DNA of 64,000 nucleotides. It comes from a virus (lineage: Duplodnaviria > Caudoviricetes). Shown piece by piece: positions 12,251 through 33,710 of the stretch (the first letter of the stretch is position 1; each line of letters begins with the position of its first letter). The notes under the pieces were generated by a model that was not told the origin of the DNA, made no database searches, and saw only the letters and a program-made list of their open reading frames with translations. The stretch is taken from IMG/VR virus record IMGVR_UViG_2974511964_000001, positions 32,001-96,000 of that record. One strand, given 5' to 3'. The translations under genes and the position numbers were made by a program.

Positions 12251-13357
12251 TTACTTACCTCCATTTTTAATTAGCTCTAAGGCTCTCTCATAGCGTGCTA
12301 GGAACCCTTGTGGGTCAGAGCTGTCACCCTTATCGTCTAAAATAACTACTTTGTCAGAAAACCCCTGATTTGAAATCTCTTCCATTAGGTTGTCGTGAAA
12401 GGCATCCCTAGTGCTTTCCCAATCCATATTTCTAAACCCATCATCAACATATTTAGTTACAGGTGGGATAACGATAATTAAATCCCACTCTTCTTTTTTA
12501 ACCGTATTGGCATAAATCTGAGTAAGGTTTTCATAATCCTCTTTAGGAAGATACATCTTAGCATAGACATTAGTAACCATAGCATCAGTGTCACAAATTA
12601 CAATTCCTTGATTAGCTGGGCTATGCATTTCAGCTTTGTTAGCATCATACTGTCCTTGAAAGAAGTGTGAGTAATCATCAACAGTTAGTTCATCATCAGT
12701 TAGATTATACTTTTCTTCATAGTAACGGGCATACTCGGTACTAAATGGAGCATTAACTGAACGAGCTACGTGTTTAATAAGTGTTGATTTACCAACAGAT
12801 GCTGAGCCAACAACCAATACCTTATAGGTAAAGTGACGCCGGAAAACACGATTGATATAGTTCCAATATTTATGTGGGTCATTGCGAATCATTGTTGCTG
12901 ATATTGGGATTACTTTTCTGTCTTCTAGTTTAGTATGCCATTCAGGTAACAGCTCATGGAATTTGTCATCATATTCTTGTTCGCCTGTGTATACTGTGAT
13001 TTCAGCATCCTTATTTGTAGTTGCTTTATCCACAATTTCTTCGAGTTTTAACAACCAAGGCTTCCAACCGTCAGGATAGCGTGGAATATTATCTTCGTTA
13101 AGCATAGCTACCACAATGTTAGGCTCATCAGCAAAGGCTTCTCTTAAATATCTAAACCGTTTATAAAGTGGTAGTCCGATTTTATCTCCTCGGTCACCTT
13201 TATAGCCGCTTACGACTAGTACAACACCATCGTTAACAGCTAGCGCTCTGTATAAATCTTGTTGATGACCCGAGTGGAATGGTGACCAAGTCCCAAAATA
13301 TACACCAATTTTATTACCTGAAAGTTTATTCTTTGTAATCAATTCTAAATTATTCAT
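12251..13357 (-). CDS. nadR: NadR-type bifunctional NMN adenylyltransferase / nicotinamide riboside kinase (no HTH)
   Basis: FGTWSPFHSGH (HxGH), ISATMIR, GSASVGKST Walker A, CDTD, YVDDG.R; likely start ATG at 13357, overlapping the pnuC stop. Confidence 0.92.
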   Translation of the reverse strand: MNNLELITKNKLSGNKIGVYFGTWSPFHSGHQQDLYRALAVNDGVVLVVSGYKGDRGDKIGLPLYKRFRYLREAFADEPNIVVAMLNEDNIPRYPDGWKPWLLKLEEIVDKATTNKDAEITVYTGEQEYDDKFHELLPEWHTKLEDRKVIPISATMIRNDPHKYWNYINRVFRRHFTYKVLVVGSASVGKSTLIKHVARSVNAPFSTEYARYYEEKYNLTDDELTVDDYSHFFQGQYDANKAEMHSPANQGIVICDTDAMVTNVYAKMYLPKEDYENLTQIYANTVKKEEWDLIIVIPPVTKYVDDGFRNMDWESTRDAFHDNLMEEISNQGFSDKVVILDDKGDSSDPQGFLARYERALELIKNGGK

Positions 13358-14120
13358 TATTAGATACCCCACTATTGTTTTCCTTTGTGTACCAAACGTA
13401 AGCTCCATAAATTGCATTAATCGTCATAATTATTTGTAGAATAAACATGCTTAATGCAGAAGCTCCACCACTAGTTAACTGAACATACCAAATGTAAATA
13501 TTTAACAAATCTAGTCCAATCCATACGACCCATTGTGAACGGTACCCATATGTCATTAGAATTTGACCAATAATACCAAGTGGCAATACAGCACTATCTC
13601 TTAGAACTTGATTACCATTAAATTTGAATCCAATATAAACATTTACGGCGTAAAGTGCTAGTAATCCTATTACAGTTAACGTAGCTAATAGTGGGGTAAT
13701 CTTTTTACTGATAACACTATCATCATTTGAGCTATTTAACGTTTTATACCAAACGTAGATACCAACGAACTGCATGATAGTATAAAATATTTGAGAAGAA
13801 ATATCCCCAATTAAACGGTTATGCAAAGAAGCAATTAGCCATGATAGGCTACCAATTGTTCCCCACATGAAATTGGTTAGCTTGCCCTTATCTACTAGTA
13901 TTAAACTCATAGCAGTAGCTACACTAGTAATTACTCCAGCATAACCTGAAAAAGAGAAGTCACCTTGAAACATGAAAGCAACAATTGAAGCACCAACCAT
14001 AAGGAACATTAGTAAATACTCCTTATAATTAAACTCTGTTAATTCCTTGATATTACGCTTAATTGAAAACGTATCTTTAATGCCAGTACCTAATAATTTA
14101 TAATCTATATTTTTAGTCAT
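13350..14120 (-). CDS. pnuC: Nicotinamide riboside transporter PnuC
   Basis: Multiple TM helices; KGKLTNF, GIYVW, GQILM...YRSQWVVWI..D and N..YG...W motifs; upstream of nadR. Confidence 0.9.
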   Translation of the reverse strand: MTKNIDYKLLGTGIKDTFSIKRNIKELTEFNYKEYLLMFLMVGASIVAFMFQGDFSFSGYAGVITSVATAMSLILVDKGKLTNFMWGTIGSLSWLIASLHNRLIGDISSQIFYTIMQFVGIYVWYKTLNSSNDDSVISKKITPLLATLTVIGLLALYAVNVYIGFKFNGNQVLRDSAVLPLGIIGQILMTYGYRSQWVVWIGLDLLNIYIWYVQLTSGGASALSMFILQIIMTINAIYGAYVWYTKENNSGVSNNE

Positions 14121-14127
14121 AATTTTA

Positions 14128-14171
14128 TCTCCTATTGTTTTTACTGTGCCGTGGGCGGAAAGAAACGCACA
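14128..14171 (-). promoter_or_regulatory. NAD+-II (pnuC-motif) riboswitch, compact mini form, overlapping the pnuC SD
   Basis: RNA UGUGCGUUUCUUUCCGCCCACGGCACAGUAAAAACAAUAGGAGA: P1 UGUGC/GCACA, GCGUU..UCCG..CACGGC core, A-rich AAAAACAA linker, UCC able to pair with GGA of the SD; resembles the streptococcal pnuC NAD+-II aptamer as I recall it. Confidence 0.8.
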
Positions 14172-14223
14172 TTTTTATTTAATTTTATTTTCCGTCTATA
14201 TGATATTTAATACTAATCATATC

Positions 14224-14253
14224 TTATGGCGGAGGTCTAAGAGTTATATCCAT
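14224..14253 (-). CDS. Leader peptide MDITLRPPP* (uORF)
   Basis: ATG GAT ATA ACT CTT AGA CCT CCG CCA TAA with SD AAGGGAG (14265-14271), just downstream of the operon promoter. Confidence 0.6.
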   Translation of the reverse strand: MDITLRPPP

Positions 14254-14281
14254 ATAGTCTAATTCTCCCTTCTATATAAAA

Positions 14282-14310
14282 AGTATAGCACTAAATATAT
14301 CATTTGTCAA
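14282..14310 (-). promoter_or_regulatory. Sigma-A promoter of the pnuC-nadR-NUDIX operon
   Basis: TTGACA-17 bp-TATACT with TG extension, minus strand. Confidence 0.85.
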
Positions 14311-14339
14311 TATAATTATTACTAATATTTATAAATGTA

Positions 14340-15345
14340 TGTTTATTCATATAACTATACTTTATTCATTCTATCAAGTATTGTCCGAATGGTCCCGGCT
14401 TAGAACCCGGCCTAGGCTGAGACTATATAATATTAATAGTGTGTCTTCGTTAGTATTTAGTTCTCAACGTCTTGTGGTCTACGTCCCGCTAGTAGTTTAT
14501 AAGCGTTATTAGTCCAGCCCACCTGATTACCATAAATATGTAATCAAAAATCTTTAAGTTCAAGTTCAAATTCCTTATTATGTATTAATAAATCAATCCT
14601 AAACACATGCTATCATACTTAATCTGTAAAACGGTTTTGACCTTGACTCTCCTGCTGTTCAGAGAGAGGGAGTAAGTGAATGAGATACAGTTAGTCCATA
14701 GATGGATAGTTTAGCGTAAATCTATTACTAGAAATACAATACTAAGCTAAGCTCTATGGACAATAACTGCATAATAACTAATTAACTAATCCAACTGTTC
14801 GTCGGTCGGTCGGTCGGTCATTTCAACAGGAGTTGGTTATTCAAGTCACTACGTATTGCTATCCTAACATTGGTTACTACATTGAGTGTTAAGCGATTGT
14901 TTTCTTCATCATGAGGACTTATCGTCTAGCTTTATTATAATCTATTAGGATAGCTCAGCATCTATACTTGTAATACTAACCTAGCTACCAGCATTCCAGC
15001 CACTGGTAGGTTATTCGCATAAGCAGGTTAATATCTCCACCCGTTTTCAGGGCACTGGAAACCTCTTACAGCATTTATTTAACGACCTGCTACTCGGTCA
15101 AACCCACCACTGCAACTCCTAAACGGTGGGTTCCTAGTCACTTTTATAGAATCGGAGGGACTATTCAAATATGCTCCTGTCTCTTTTTGTTTGGTATCAG
15201 TGAATATTACCTTTAGGTGGTCTCGCCTATTGGGTATCCCTATTAAGTTTTAAAGTTATCTTATAGCTCTGCGCATTTCGGTAACTTCTTTTGTAACTAG
15301 GCTATTTAGTTATCCTCGGTTAGCCGTGTAACCTTATTTTTAATT
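14340..15345. ncRNA. Large structured non-coding element (candidate ncRNA and/or replication origin)
   Basis: No ORF of 60 aa or more; many nested helices, e.g. 14688-14702/14753-14769, 14858-14867/14945-14954, 15023-15029/15084-15090, 15101-15108/15125-15132; G-U pairs favour folding of the + strand. Confidence 0.55.
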
Positions 15346-15347
15346 CT

Positions 15348-15376
15348 AGTATACCATACTCTTTTCAAAAGTAAAC
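15348..15376 (-). promoter_or_regulatory. Leftward extended -10 promoter firing into the non-coding element
   Basis: GTTTAC-17 bp-TATACT with TG at the extended -10 position. Confidence 0.5.
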
Positions 15377-15398
15377 CCAATTTATATAGAAAAATTTA

Positions 15399-15427
15399 TT
15401 GACTACTAAATTATATAATGTTACTAT
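15399..15427 (+). promoter_or_regulatory. Sigma-A promoter of the replication operon
   Basis: TTGACT-17 bp-TACTAT with TG extension. Confidence 0.7.
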
Positions 15428-15478
15428 AGTCTATAGAATAAATACATTTCACGGGCATCAATAAGGAGGTGCTATATA

Positions 15479-16540
15479 ATGAATTTAAAAGACCCAAAAT
15501 TTAAAACAGACGATACACCTGTTAAGTTTGCTGATTTTGATGCTTATGTTATCAGCTTAATTTATGACAAATATGTGCAACTTTTTAGACAGAAAGATGC
15601 TGACAATAAGGGAATTGATGCTAGTGTTGAATTAGAAAGAACCGTTGACTCAATTGTTGATAGCAAATTACACTATGCACTGGTTAAAGCCTCCAAGTAT
15701 TTTAGGATTAACCACATTAATCCGGTATATTATTTGTCTGTCGTTTTTAGTAGACACTTATATAATGACAGAAACAAGAAGAGGATTATGAACGTTCCTT
15801 ATGAGGTGGGCCTTGTGTCTGAAACTTATCAGTCGTACTATCAAAACGGCTTAAAGTACGATAGAACTTATCATAAAAACATAAATGGAGTTCCTCATGA
15901 AACAGTAATGTTTCTAGATAATCCCTATATTTCATTTGTGTACCAATACTATGGATTGTTACAGAAGTGTAGATATGATAATGTAGAGATGTCTAAGGAG
16001 TTAAGAACATATCAGTACAATCACTCAATTAAGATTATGACACTGGATGAGAACAAGCTTGATGGCATGTATAGAGAGTACGTAGAGTATAGTCGTAGAT
16101 TAGTAAAGGCATTAAATGTTAGGCATCCAGAGATGTCATTATATGTAATGCAACTATGTAACTATCGCTACCTAGGTGCTATGAACACTCCTATTTTATT
16201 ATTTGGAACATCAAGATATTCTATGAGTGCTATTTCTGATATTAGGTCTGATGAGACAGACAATGAGTTGTACCTTCATTCTCTATTATATGGTTTAAAG
16301 AAGACTTATGACTCTGTGTATGCAGCAACTATTTCAGATGGTGATGAGCTTAAAATAATTAGGGACAACTTACAAACTGACAAAGTGTCAGAGTATTATG
16401 CTATTATCAATATCGGGCGTAAGATTATAGCTTACTTTAGCTCGGACTTGGTAATTAGAACGAAGGCTCGAAAGGTATTTCCTAAGGATTTAAGAGAACA
16501 ATTGTTGGACAGATATGATATGCCAATTATTAATATTTAG
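15479..16540 (+). CDS. Putative Rep-like / replication-associated protein
   Basis: Strong RBS; occupies the position just before the replicative helicase, as in SPO1/Twort-like phages; no motif recognised. Confidence 0.4.
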   Translation: MNLKDPKFKTDDTPVKFADFDAYVISLIYDKYVQLFRQKDADNKGIDASVELERTVDSIVDSKLHYALVKASKYFRINHINPVYYLSVVFSRHLYNDRNKKRIMNVPYEVGLVSETYQSYYQNGLKYDRTYHKNINGVPHETVMFLDNPYISFVYQYYGLLQKCRYDNVEMSKELRTYQYNHSIKIMTLDENKLDGMYREYVEYSRRLVKALNVRHPEMSLYVMQLCNYRYLGAMNTPILLFGTSRYSMSAISDIRSDETDNELYLHSLLYGLKKTYDSVYAATISDGDELKIIRDNLQTDKVSEYYAIINIGRKIIAYFSSDLVIRTKARKVFPKDLREQLLDRYDMPIINI

Positions 16541-16551
16541 GAGGAACAACC

Positions 16552-18057
16552 GTGACAGAAAGTACAAAAACATTACAAGAACAATTATTAGTGAGAGCAT
16601 TAAGCAGTTCATACATTACTAATGCAGTATTAGCTAGAAACACACCATCACTATTGACTAACCCGACTTATCAGGTTCTAGGTAATATATTAGTTAGATA
16701 CTATGCAACGGACACAAAGCCGATTTCAGAAGCAAGTATTAAGCTTGGAATTGATAGATACTTTAAAGATGAAAACAGACGTAGAAGCCATAAGCATGAA
16801 GACCCATTAACACAGCAAGAAGAGCTAGATATTACCCAGACTATTAATGATGTTATGGAAACTAAGCCAGATAGTTCTGATGAAATCGAAGAGTCACTAG
16901 ATAAATATGTTAAGAAGACTTTAGCTTCTGCTGCTATTCTAGAAGAAGCGCAGCGAGACTCAGATGACTTATCTAAGAGAGTTGAAGAAAAACTTGATGA
17001 TATCAACTCATTAGACATCAATGGTAGTGCGGACACTGTTGTTGATGTTTATCGTGATGTTCGTAAGAAGGCAGAAACATATATTAATGATTTGGGCCAA
17101 GCAAAGATACCATCTGGATTAAAAACATTTGACTATGTGATGAGTGGTGGGCTACAAAAAGGCCAAATTGCAATGATTGGTGGTAAATCTGGATTTGGTA
17201 AAACAGTATTTCTATCTAATCTATCCTACTACTACAGTATGGTATCTGGTCATAACGTTCTACAGGTTAGTTTGGAAGAACTGATGGCAGATTCATATAT
17301 GCGTTTTGATAGAATGCACTATCGAGTGACACCGAGTGACATGTTAACTGGAGATGGTAAAATTGACCCCAATTTCATTAAGAATGTTTTAGCTAAGCCT
17401 CATAAGCCAGATAAAGGAACCCTGTTGTTCAAACGATATACGCCTAATACTTTAACTGTTGATGGTTTACGACAGTGTATTGACACATCAGAACGCCAAA
17501 AAGGATTAAAACTCGATGTGGTTGTACTTGACTATGCAGACTTAATGCGTACAGCTAAGAAATCAGATAACGAAGCTGTTCAGGGTGAAGAGCTATTCCA
17601 AAATCTGTCGAAACTAGCGCAGGAAGAAAATGTTATTCTAATTACGGGTACTCAATTGAACCGTTCTGCCGGTAGCCAAGAAGTTATGACGTTAGAGTCA
17701 ATCGAAGGTTCCTACCGTAAGATTAACACTACTGCATTCGCTGGAACTTTAAACGGGACTAAAGAAGAACGTGATGGCGGTTTCATGCGTATTTATTTAG
17801 ATAAGATTCGTAATCGGTTTGTATCTGATGATTATATGCTATTTAAATTTGATAAGGGAACAATGCTTTTAACCGATGAAACTGATGCCGAAAAGGTAGA
17901 ACACATGTCGCTTATCAACCAAGACGCATCAAATATGAAAGCTCAACGTAGAGCAGAGTATGCCAAAGGCAATGGCAATGACACTAGTAATAGCGAAATG
18001 CAAGATAAAGCAAATGAAATTATGTCTAGTTTAATAGGCGGAAATAAGAAGGCTTAA
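16552..18057 (+). CDS. DnaB-like replicative DNA helicase
   Basis: GGKSGFGKT Walker A, SLEE, VVLDYADLM, TGTQLNR, KIRNR. Confidence 0.92.
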   Translation: MTESTKTLQEQLLVRALSSSYITNAVLARNTPSLLTNPTYQVLGNILVRYYATDTKPISEASIKLGIDRYFKDENRRRSHKHEDPLTQQEELDITQTINDVMETKPDSSDEIEESLDKYVKKTLASAAILEEAQRDSDDLSKRVEEKLDDINSLDINGSADTVVDVYRDVRKKAETYINDLGQAKIPSGLKTFDYVMSGGLQKGQIAMIGGKSGFGKTVFLSNLSYYYSMVSGHNVLQVSLEELMADSYMRFDRMHYRVTPSDMLTGDGKIDPNFIKNVLAKPHKPDKGTLLFKRYTPNTLTVDGLRQCIDTSERQKGLKLDVVVLDYADLMRTAKKSDNEAVQGEELFQNLSKLAQEENVILITGTQLNRSAGSQEVMTLESIEGSYRKINTTAFAGTLNGTKEERDGGFMRIYLDKIRNRFVSDDYMLFKFDKGTMLLTDETDAEKVEHMSLINQDASNMKAQRRAEYAKGNGNDTSNSEMQDKANEIMSSLIGGNKKA

Positions 18058-31452: not shown

Positions 31453-33710
31453 ATGGTTAAAGTAATGGCAGTACTAGAGTTCCCTAGAGTATCATATTTC
31501 AAGAAGTCTACTAATGGAGAGTATGATTTTAATTTTATGTCTACTAGGGCTGGAAAGCTACTAAATAAGACATTGACAGCTCCTAGAGCAGGATTAGGAC
31601 TTGATTTAAAAGATGTTGATATAGAATTTGCGTATGATTCTATTCCAAAAGTATATAAAGACAATAGCTATGCACCTATCTCAATTAAATCTGGTAAGCC
31701 TTCCTTTGATAGATTAAAAGCTAAGATAGCAGAAACTAATCCAGATTTACTATTAGCGTTTGGTGGCACATCTTGTTTAGCATTGTTGGGTAAGAAGGGG
31801 GTTAATGACCTAAGAGGACGCCCTTATGATTTATCCTTAGAGAATAGAACTTACACTGTTTTCCCAATGCTTAACCCAGAAGATATTTTAACTTCACCTA
31901 ATAAAGAACTACTGTTAAAAGTTGATATTGGTCTAGTTAAACGATTTTTAAAGGGTGGCAAGGAAGCTTTAAAGCCTAACGTAGGTAAGTATGAACTGGT
32001 GGAAGACTTTAGTAGAGTTAAACAAATATTTACTAACATTTTAGGGTTACCCCCATTGTCTAAGCCTAAATATAATATTGTAGCAGTCGATACCGAAACT
32101 AATACACTGGAAACTAACAACAAGGGTGCTAAGCCTATTATTCTATCATTGTCATGGGAAGAGCACCAAGGAGTATGTATCCCTCTAAAGCATGATTTAG
32201 TCCCAGATTTATGGACAGATGAACAGTTTAACCAAATAAAACAGTGGATACTAGATTTATTTGAAGCGGACCAGTGGAAGGTTCTACACAATGGGAAATA
32301 TGATATCAAGATGTTTATGGATACTTATGGGCTAAAACATGCTCGCAAGTGTGTGGATACCTTAATCATGTTCTGGATTAGCGTTATCGAAGAAAGCACA
32401 GTCAGCAAAGGGTTGAAGGATTTAGCTTGGTTATATACGGATATGGGTGGTTATGAAGAACCACTAGATGAATTTAAAGAATCCTATGTACAAAAGGATT
32501 ATGACCGTTGGTATAAGGAAGAGGAGCAGCGATTAATTGATGAGGCTAAAGCTAATCCATTAAAAACAGGTAAGCCTCGCAAGCCTAAATTACCAGCCAA
32601 GTCGAATTACCCCGGATTAGTTAACAAAGTGGATGGTAGCAAGTTTAACTATGAATGGATTCCATTAGAAATTATTTACCCGTATGCTGCCGGTGACACT
32701 GATGCTTGTTTACGGATTTATAATCAGTTGTTTAAGAAGGTTAAAACTAATCCTAATTGGGTAAACTTAGTGTTCAATGTGTATCCTAAGCTAGATGATG
32801 CCTTATGCCATATGGAACATAACGGTTTACAAATTGACAATAACAAGGCCAAAGAGCTGGCTAAGGCTTATGGTGACCGTAAAGAAAACACCTTGAATGC
32901 TATTCATAAGATAGTTCCAGAGATTAAGCAGGTAGAGCAAGAGAGAATTGATAACCTAGCTAAGCGAGCTAAACTAATGGCAAGTGTTAAGCCTAAGGAT
33001 AGAACTGAGGAAGATAAAGCTTTCATCAAAGAGGCTGGTAAGTACAACGGTAACAACCCTAAGACTGGTGAGCCAAAGTATAAAGTTAATTTAGACTCGA
33101 ATAATGACCTCGGATATATTCTGTATGAAGTATTGGGGTATACCTTACCACCAGAACCAAACTTTCTAACTGATACTACTGTTAAGCACCGTATTCCACA
33201 AGATAAGCTAACTTATAAAAACTATCGAGTTAATATCGAGGCTATTGAGTATATTCGTGATAACTATGATAAGAAGCTAGGTGAGTTGCTAGTAACGTAT
33301 AGTAAGACTGTTACTGCCTTGTCAGGTTTTGTGCTTAAGTTACCAGCATTACAAGACCCTAATGGGAGAATCCATACTAGGTTTAACCCAACTGGTACAG
33401 TTACAAGCCGCCTTAGCTCGTCAGGAAATTTTAATGCTCAGAACCTTACTAGGCCAGAAACAGACCCCCGCAAGTTTAATCATAAGTATTCAGTTAAGTC
33501 AATGATTCATTCCCGTTTTAAGGGTGGTGTTATTGCCAATATTGACTTTAAATCACTGGAAGTATATGTAATGGCACTTATCTCTAAAGACCGCTCCTTA
33601 ACGCAAACATTACTAGATAATAAAGATGTTCATAAGCATAATGCTAGTGTTGCCTATGGTATACCGGAAGAGGATGTAACTAAGGATTTACGAACGAAAG
33701 CAAAAGCCGT
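31453..33710 (+). CDS. Family A DNA polymerase, exon 1 (UDG-like N-domain, 3'-5' exonuclease, motif A)
   Basis: VDTET, HNGKYD, YAAGD, TGTVTSRLSS, DFKSLE, DVH, R.KAKAV. Confidence 0.92.

Follow-up and report, generated by a model that had tools for sequence, protein, structure and literature searches.

The question raised by this locus is what a phage maintains in a long stretch free of open reading frames (ORFs) at the head of its replication genes. We analysed 64,000 nucleotides (nt) of the virus record IMGVR_UViG_2974511964_000001 (IMG/VR; Duplodnaviria, Caudoviricetes; positions 32,001 to 96,000 of a 138-kb record, hereafter the window). The ORF-free tract extends over window positions 14121-15478 (1358 bp), between a divergent pnuC operon on its left and a replication operon on its right. 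It is 95-96% identical to DNA of the L. plantarum phages Bacchae, Lpa804 and Semele (Herelleviridae, Harbinvirus), and the source is a Harbinvirus phage of Lactiplantibacillus plantarum (Lactobacillus plantarum). The tract is non-coding, compensatory changes attest to a conserved structure, promoters of consensus type stand at both of its ends, and it carries a module common to plasmids. As judged from these features, the gap most likely encodes on the minus strand an early RNA that is large, folded and non-coding; behind it lies a short DNA segment shared with host plasmids in which no replication gene was found. We lean, at somewhat under an even chance, towards a transcription-activated replication origin with a structured untranslated transcript.

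The original prediction had placed about 1 kb of gene-free DNA here, and the tract proved to be real and larger than claimed. The only ORF of at least 40 amino acids (aa) listed inside it, at 14339-14512 (57 aa), is not kept in relatives because these carry 1-nt indels. Coding potential of the tract as a whole was considered and rejected, since relatives display indels that are not multiples of three together with compensatory substitution patterns. The matched region has no annotated gene in Bacchae and Semele and an HNH gene in Lpa804; the Semele tract is about 120 bp shorter than that of the window. DNA near-identical to window positions 12500-17500 was seen in silage, food-fermentation, compost, landfill and digester metagenomes of at least 12 studies, and roughly 14 DNA runs contain the tract.

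The tract contains a structured core, termed here type A (Table 1), which beyond the Harbinviruses was found only in LpeD (Elpedvirus), with 75% identity over window positions 14833-15199 and a further match at the hairpin near 14685-14770. In an alignment of six core sequences, invariant blocks alternate with blocks that are changed on both sides of a helix. RNAalifold predicted 166 pairs from this alignment, 32 of them with both sides changed, as compared to a mean of 12 and a maximum of 18-20 in column shuffles; the consensus minimum free energy (MFE) was -129 versus -89 +/- 6 in the shuffles (z -6.3 on the minus strand and -7.7 on the plus strand). When the 3' partners were slid by one to three columns, paired cells dropped from 96% to 32-43% and double-changed pairs from 32 to 1-8, and in LpeD 126 of 158 positions are paired versus 50-69 with slid partners. 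The single-sequence fold of 14833-15199 gave z values of -2.6 (plus) and -1.1 (minus). The alignment-level test decisively shows more structure in type A than expected by chance, and the large multi-domain structure initially proposed is borne out, and shown to be conserved, by covariation with LpeD and by both controls.

The individual helices listed at the outset fared unevenly, and comparison with LpeD and other phages left four of the eight coinciding with supported helices. The helix 14858-14867/14945-14954 matches a stem of the long branched domain with six double compensatory changes (14943-14953/14859-14869), a number also reached by 14913-14928/14890-14904 in the same domain. The pairing 15101-15108/15125-15132 falls within the 13-bp hairpin of Table 1, with its three double changes and 12 of 13 pairs kept in LpeD. 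The pairing 14688-14702/14753-14769 belongs to the long terminal hairpin, where a 17-pair segment keeps 15 pairs in LpeD, the arms of the domain being conserved and its loop diverged. The fourth, 14524-14530/14540-14546, covaries, with A-U replaced by G-C in Satyr, SA-C12 and Nyseid. By contrast, 15023-15029/15084-15090 has a 5' arm that is unable to pair in LpeD and a 3' arm occupied by the invariant hairpin 15084-15099; the long-range TTGACC/GGTCAA pair is lost in LpeD; 14791-14796/14831-14836 is reduced there to 3 bp; and 14415-14425/14510-14519, complementary in the window, was not recovered by RNAalifold across 10 phages. Besides, LpeD keeps all nine pairs of the hairpin 15001-15009/14985-14993, with one C-G changed to U-G, which pairs on the minus strand only. 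The sole repeat of the tract, a (TCGG)n microsatellite, is present in all Harbinviruses examined and is probably dispensable, because LpeD lacks it. Exact-pattern IMG/VR scans and nhmmer searches for further type A members returned only Bacchae, Lpa804, LpeD and one 4-kb contig; a pattern scan of JGI metagenomes gave two chance matches only, and protein-anchored locus searches led to close relatives only.

A sister element of approximately 500 nt, type B, is found in the corresponding ORF-free gap of LP65 (Herelleviridae) and in those of seven Tybeckvirinae siphophages (ATCC 8014-B2, hereafter B2, Lenus, P1, Satyr, Maenad, Nyseid and SA-C12), with copies that are 70-86% identical to one another. 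No similarity between types A and B was detected by blastn and nhmmer, no covariance-model cross-search having been made. On the minus strand the type B consensus MFE was -84.5 versus -28.7 +/- 4.1 in shuffles (z -13.6), with 39 double-changed pairs (shuffle mean 8.8); on the plus strand it was -54.8 versus -26.6 +/- 6.0 (z -4.7), with 27 such pairs (shuffle mean 7.4). The structure of type B is more strongly supported than that of type A. The helices predicted on both strands contain 32 G-U cells on the minus strand versus 5 on the plus strand, and the base pairs point decisively to the minus strand for type B. Both types lie in the same slot, with the same 5' motif and the same 3' module, and in LP65 type B stands beside the same pnuC operon as type A in the window. 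Non-homologous cores are interchangeable in one slot.

With Rfam 15, the whole window had no match at the gathering threshold, positions 14000-15600 at E<=10 had two weak snoRNA chance matches far below gathering and no GOLLD, ROOL or NAD+-II (pnuC-motif) riboswitch, of which a compact variant might escape such a search, and six related phage loci at E<=1 yielded one tRNA only; a tRNA and tmRNA search of the window found none. Neither the type A nor the type B RNA is in Rfam, in agreement with the earlier statement that no known family could be recognised. Searches of both types by nhmmer and blastn against the long non-coding RNA (lncRNA) loci of phage K, the origin of phage c2 and the plasmid cores described below revealed no similarity.

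The strand on which type A acts was assessed from promoters and base pairs. A consensus scan placed a minus-strand sigma-70-like site directly upstream of the element in the window (promoter P1), LpeD, B2, SA-C12 and Lenus, and similar sites were recognised by eye in phage P1, Satyr, LP65 and Nyseid, most of them with a TG-extended -10. Such an extended -10 belongs to the site in six of the ten phage loci, four of these being identified by the scan. From these upstream promoters the RNA is predicted to start near 15341 and to run leftwards. A 5' motif downstream of promoter P1 is shared by types A and B in the form AAAACTTAATAAG, and AAAACTTAATA(A/G)G comes after the upstream promoter in all but one of the ten loci inspected. 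Further to the left lies a second, co-directional promoter, P2, and comparable pairs were predicted by consensus scan, in locus coordinates, in Lenus (2059-2031 and 1461-1433), SA-C12 (2067-2039 and 1170-1143) and B2 (3232-3204 and 2491-2463). The same scan revealed no plus-strand promoter-like site in 14311-15398, upstream of the core. G-U pairs had been said to occur on the plus strand only; strand-neutral type A helices give 65 G-U cells on the minus versus 49 on the plus strand, a mild lean in the opposite direction. Because of the conserved minus-strand promoters, which are the stronger argument, and of the G-U asymmetry, which is clear in type B, the functional strand is most likely minus rather than plus as first suggested.

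We infer a transcript with predicted ends on the minus strand. Logan contigs of four RNA libraries (four studies) cover 14696-15217, parts of the core; since depth is similar over the flanking genes and the contigs are unstranded, they are compatible with transcription without arguing further for it. Gaps in these contigs at 14337-14670 prove nothing, the module being the most variable part of the tract. The tract does not behave as the single unit first envisaged and comprises at least three parts, namely a promoter and leader, the core at 14675-15262 and a poorly structured mosaic module at 14369-14549.

This 3' module of about 180 nt is 66-89% identical to nine phage loci of both families. 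Its pairing is sparse (12 pairs by RNAalifold), with a sole covarying hairpin, and among Harbinviruses it reaches 70-89% identity versus 97-98% for the core. An insert of about 810 bp with an HNH gene replaces 14337-14450 in Lpa804. In Lpa804, SA-C12 and Nyseid, which have a distinct module variant in common, the module is immediately followed by a free-standing HNH endonuclease gene of the same orientation, and phage P1 carries one in the gap near a partial module copy (L001:3216-3836, L021:468-1106, L020:473-1111 and L019:510-1121 for the three module-adjoining genes and that of phage P1, in locus coordinates). As HNH genes adjoin a shared and distinct module variant, homing-driven mosaicism is suggested at this site. 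SA-C12-type modules hold a terminator-like hairpin before P2 that is not kept in the window variant. A plus-strand promoter-like site, TAGAAA-18-TATAAT, is present in the module of B2 and of plasmids and lost in the Lpa804, SA-C12 and Nyseid variants. The single-strand origin ssoA is a long imperfect hairpin, whose base carries an RSB site and whose loop carries CS-6 (TAGCGT), beside the rep gene of rolling-circle replicating (RCR) plasmids. The minus strand has words similar to TAGCGT and to GCCGAGA; no ssoA-like conserved long hairpin was found in the module by RNAalifold, and no RCR rep gene was listed or found by ORF scan in the inspected stretches of module-bearing plasmids.

The module links the phages to plasmids of their host. 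Matches to window positions 14369-14494 were obtained in 105 plasmids (84-85% identity) and matches to the B2 copy in 173 (up to 89%); nearly all of these plasmids belong to L. plantarum, and the matched DNA is always unannotated. In the 5.3-kb plasmid NZ_CP097180.1 the module lies within about 1.8 kb (231-2038) without an ORF of at least 60 aa, beside an HTH/DUF536 gene (HTH, helix-turn-helix); its incomplete gene table further lists an integrase and a toxin-antitoxin pair, and inspection of 4.3 kb revealed no rep ORF. The same layout recurs in pLP9000 and other plasmids, the module being present in all six plasmids examined, and no rep ORF was found in the inspected stretches of module-bearing plasmids, including the pLP9000 backbone. 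At least 80% of the NZ_CP097180.1 backbone is shared by 57 plasmids. Between the DUF536-type gene and the module, about 600 nt occur in non-homologous types with homologous flanks. The backbone of two plasmids, NZ_CP097180.1 among them, includes the Bacillus-plasmid RNA motif RF01691; pLP9000 has a PemK/PemI-type toxin-antitoxin pair and a DUF536 gene, and two other plasmids including NZ_CP097180.1 have YafQ/Phd-type pairs. A promoter-to-terminator non-coding unit was also noted on the minus strand of NZ_CP097180.1 (2028-1557; fold z -3.3). Plasmid p256 is theta-replicating, carries a pemK/pemI pair and has a minimal origin so small that origin plus cat gene amount to 1690 bp. The module-bearing plasmids resemble the p256 type of low-copy theta plasmids, described as a 'new type of replicon'. 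The tract is like the p256/pLP9000 type in that pLP9000 and more than 100 further plasmids hold, in an ORF-free backbone, a site with 84-89% identity to the module; the tract is unlike this type in that only the module of about 130-180 nt is in common, not the adjoining plasmid sequence of about 600 nt.

The genes to the right of the tract are consistent with a role in replication, and the proximity to replication genes noted in the original prediction holds. The plus-strand operon begins with a 353-aa protein matching phrog_1098, followed by a DnaB-like helicase and then by SbcD-like and SbcC/Rad50-like proteins. The 353-aa protein had no match in a Pfam search; it is homologous to a 474-aa HTH protein of LpeD (L005:3476-4900; 33% identity, E 3e-47), which also has a weak DnaD-like loader match, and it is a candidate origin-binding protein or helicase loader. 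LP65, with a type B RNA, has in the same position an unrelated 367-aa protein (orf81, L006:4031-5134). The first rightward gene tracks the RNA type, being homologous in the window and LpeD (type A) and unrelated in LP65 (type B). In 14121-15478 we found no direct repeats of at least 11 nt within 400 nt of each other that could represent iterons, and none of at least 11 nt in the plasmid backbone, which fits an origin dependent on a transcript or on host factors.

A transcription-activated origin is preferred because of an anatomy like that of the c2 origin, the plasmid-shared module, the absence of iterons, the HTH protein and helicase alongside, and the tracking of the first gene with RNA type. 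In the proposed mechanism, host RNA polymerase would start at promoter P1, proceed leftwards, cross the structured type A core and then the module common to plasmids without rep, and head toward the co-directional P2 of the pnuC operon. By analogy with the c2 origin and with RNA II of ColE1, the folded transcript would act in cis and initiate replication, either by forming or stabilising an R-loop or by supplying a primer. The displaced DNA strand could also act in its stead: in an R-loop it carries the sequence of the RNA, and the same fold could therefore act as single-stranded DNA. Host enzymes, the adjacent phage DNA-binding protein and the DnaB-like helicase would then start DNA synthesis. 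The original prediction had proposed either a new large non-coding RNA or a structured RNA-primed origin, and the second option gains from the c2-like architecture and from the sharing with a rep-less plasmid backbone.

The nearest functional parallel is the origin of the lactococcal phage c2 (Ceduovirus), where the PE1 transcript (PE1-T) is untranslated and implicated in transcription-mediated initiation; c2-type origins fall into three types without intergroup similarity and with conserved flanks, and each type can drive plasmid replication unaided by phage proteins (PMC7150918). In the c2 record the annotated origin region is 611 bp long, with promoters EP1 and EP2 sharing a strand and a late promoter that is divergent from them. 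Like the tract, the c2 origin is a non-coding region between divergent gene blocks with neither ORF nor iterons, two co-directional sigma-70 early promoters (predicted by consensus scan in our case) flank the template of an untranslated transcript, and several non-homologous types occupy one slot between conserved flanks. The two differ in promoter spacing (about 1030 nt here and 570 nt in Lenus, versus about 335 nt in c2), in the extra plasmid-shared module of the tract, and in their carriers, which are here large virulent myoviruses and 80-kb siphoviruses of L. plantarum. Moreover, origin activity has been shown experimentally for c2, to which the tract is likened by sequence layout. We would say that the tract may 'work like', and not that it is a 'member of', the c2 type, because there is no sequence homology. 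RNA II of ColE1/pMB1 plasmids is a structured untranslated host-polymerase transcript of about 0.5 kb whose fold is needed for priming, with no plasmid-encoded initiator. Replicons of this type also have a conserved antisense regulator, RNA I, and a primer processed by RNase H. The predicted transcript of the tract is of a similar kind; it differs in having no homology to RNA II and no conserved antisense equivalent of RNA I that we could find.

Several observations weigh against the origin and the strand that we propose for it. The module is missing in LpeD and Lenus, so that it cannot be essential to the action of the core. For type A the strand call from base pairs alone is weak, and one Bacchae substitution fits the plus strand better (U-G on plus, C-A on minus). 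No intrinsic terminator or processing signal for the 3' end of the RNA was found in the window. An nhmmer search of types A and B against the c2 locus gave nothing significant (best E 4.3), the published p256 miniori primer was absent from the loci in which it was sought, among them four of the six plasmid loci, and whole-genome cumulative GC skew follows gene orientation, with no independent origin signal at the tract. To our knowledge, a covarying structure of 500-700 nt also exceeds the documented need of phage origin transcripts.

The main rival, which we regard as possible rather than probable, is a stable, trans-acting large structured non-coding RNA without a role in replication; it could be an ornate RNA-only or ribonucleoprotein assembly similar to ROOL and GOLLD, or resemble the early lncRNAs of phage K, and might serve host takeover or anti-defence. 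Its large and complex structure (about 100-170 pairs, 32-39 of them double-changed), its own early-type promoter, its maintenance by two unrelated phage families and the persistence of the core without the module in LpeD and Lenus all agree with such a function. ROOL and GOLLD are multi-domain covarying RNAs of 500-800 nt in Lactobacillales phages, of unknown function (PMC12286853), and our RNA is like them in size class, multi-domain covariation and phage association. However, apart from the chance matches above, none of the 4227 Rfam models, those of ROOL and GOLLD included, was matched even at E<=10; no tRNA genes adjoin the tract in the window, and the RNA sits in a fixed, promoter-flanked slot by replication genes. 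Phage K, also of the Herelleviridae, expresses abundant intergenic lncRNAs of 0.6 and 1.15 kb, one from its own early promoter and with the highest read count (PMC9241854). The RNA predicted here is intergenic, non-coding and of similar size; yet it has no sequence similarity to lnc001 and lnc002, whose loci adjoin tRNA genes near the lysis module and for which, unlike the tract, conserved structure was not reported. Contig depth in the four RNA libraries is not above that of neighbouring genes, depths which cannot rank genes, and no terminator delimits a discrete RNA in the window. A trans-acting RNA would also leave unexplained the layout of promoters P1 and P2, the non-homologous cores between conserved flanks and the sharing with plasmids.

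The lack of a terminator between promoter P1 and the downstream genes, seen in both the window and Lenus, would suit the view that the RNA is an extended, folded 5' leader belonging to the early operon on the left, in which read-through from P1 past P2 controls elongation, stability or translation, and in Lenus the core ends only about 55 nt before the first leftward gene. We give this a small chance. The downstream genes differ completely: Herelleviridae have pnuC-nadR-Nudix there, Tybeckvirinae a Holliday junction resolvase with small unknown proteins, and some phages HNH endonucleases. In the window, SA-C12, B2 and Lenus, the downstream operons examined all possess a near-consensus P2 of their own, and SA-C12-type modules place their terminator-like hairpin before P2. 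A functional plus-strand RNA, or folded plus-strand single-stranded DNA, has a smaller chance still; it would draw on the better single-sequence fold on that strand, on consensus MFE z values that are similar for both strands of type A, on the Bacchae substitution and on the TAGAAA-18-TATAAT of some module variants, and it is opposed by the lack of a plus-strand promoter-like site upstream of the core in the window, the conserved promoters on the minus strand, the G-U asymmetry and the decisive minus signal of type B. Finally, the mosaic module, exchanged between phages and plasmids and with HNH genes abutting it in three phages and near its partial copy in phage P1, could mark a recombination or homing hotspot, or palindromes bound by proteins as double-stranded DNA, with no RNA function and with conservation due to recent horizontal exchange. 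This we consider very improbable: recent transfer cannot yield dozens of compensatory double substitutions at 70-80% identity, nor one-sided changes that keep G-U pairing on one strand.

Table 1. Position and strand of the features discussed (window coordinates, except for the type B copies).
Feature	Position	Strand	Basis and remarks
Type A structured core, hairpin and three-way domains	14675-15262 (~590 nt)	minus	six-sequence alignment and RNAalifold
13-bp hairpin	15121-15133/15100-15112	minus	3 double and 4 one-sided pair-preserving changes; LpeD keeps 12/13 pairs
Two adjacent hairpins	15019-15022/15011-15014 and 15001-15009/14985-14993	minus	3 double changes each
Long branched domain	14842-14970	minus	includes 14943-14953/14859-14869, 14933-14940/14874-14881 and 14913-14928/14890-14904
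Long terminal hairpin domain	14684-14773	minus	6 double changes across three segments
(TCGG)n tetranucleotide microsatellite inside core	14800-14819		seen in sequence
Promoter P1, sigma-70 TTTACT-16-TGgTATACT (extended -10)	15348-15375	minus	consensus scan; predicted start near 15341
5' motif AAAACTTAATAGGG	15238-15251	minus	shared by types A and B downstream of promoter P1
3' module (~180 nt), mosaic	14369-14549	minus	downstream of core; common to phages and plasmids
Sole covarying hairpin of module, GATTAC/GTAATC	14524-14546	minus	A-U to G-C on both sides in Satyr, SA-C12 and Nyseid
Promoter P2, TTGACA-17-TGnTATACT, for pnuC operon	14282-14310	minus	11/12 consensus matches; co-directional with promoter P1
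Divergent promoter-like site for replication operon	15399-15427	plus	consensus scan
pnuC	13350-14120	minus	leftward operon pnuC - nadR-like - Nudix (Pfam)
353-aa protein	15479-16540	plus	phrog_1098 'HTH DNA binding protein', PHROGs E 1e-15
DnaB-like replicative helicase	16552-18057	plus	Pfam DnaB_C, E 3e-19
Type B copies	L003:2660-3210, L006:3370-3920, L018:1475-2025, L019:1475-2030, L004:2635-3190, L020:1470-2025, L021:1470-2030	minus	locus coordinates

Bacteria and phages rarely have structured RNAs of more than 500 nt, and for most such RNAs no function is known. The two families described here are large, have clear covariation and are both outside Rfam. The kind of element is already known, be it an untranslated-transcript origin or a large phage non-coding RNA; what is new is the larger size with strong covariation, the interchangeable cores and the link to host plasmids. 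The tract is not mentioned in the phage genome paper searched, and the limited literature searched held no description of an origin for Lactobacillus Herelleviridae or Tybeckvirinae. A bolder interpretation, which we hold to be possible rather than probable, is that cores A and B, and perhaps the plasmid cores, could be new classes of RNA longer than 500 nt that serve as the sole element-encoded determinant of replication initiation, in a replicon defined by RNA and run on host factors. Such a core would be a cassette, framed on one side by the conserved promoter and 5' motif and on the other by the conserved 3' module, and would pass between two families of virulent phages and the small plasmids of a single host species. 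Should the RNA act in trans, it would be a further ornate RNA carried by phages, beside ROOL and GOLLD, and would merit structural work. If the transcription-activated origin is true, the replication origin of Lactobacillus Herelleviridae and Tybeckvirinae would be located, the untranslated-transcript origin of c2 would extend from small lactococcal phages to phages of 80-140 kb, and phage origins would be linked to the widely used and poorly understood Rep-less plasmid replicons of L. plantarum, which might suggest vector parts and 'Per'-type decoy phage-resistance tools for food fermentations.

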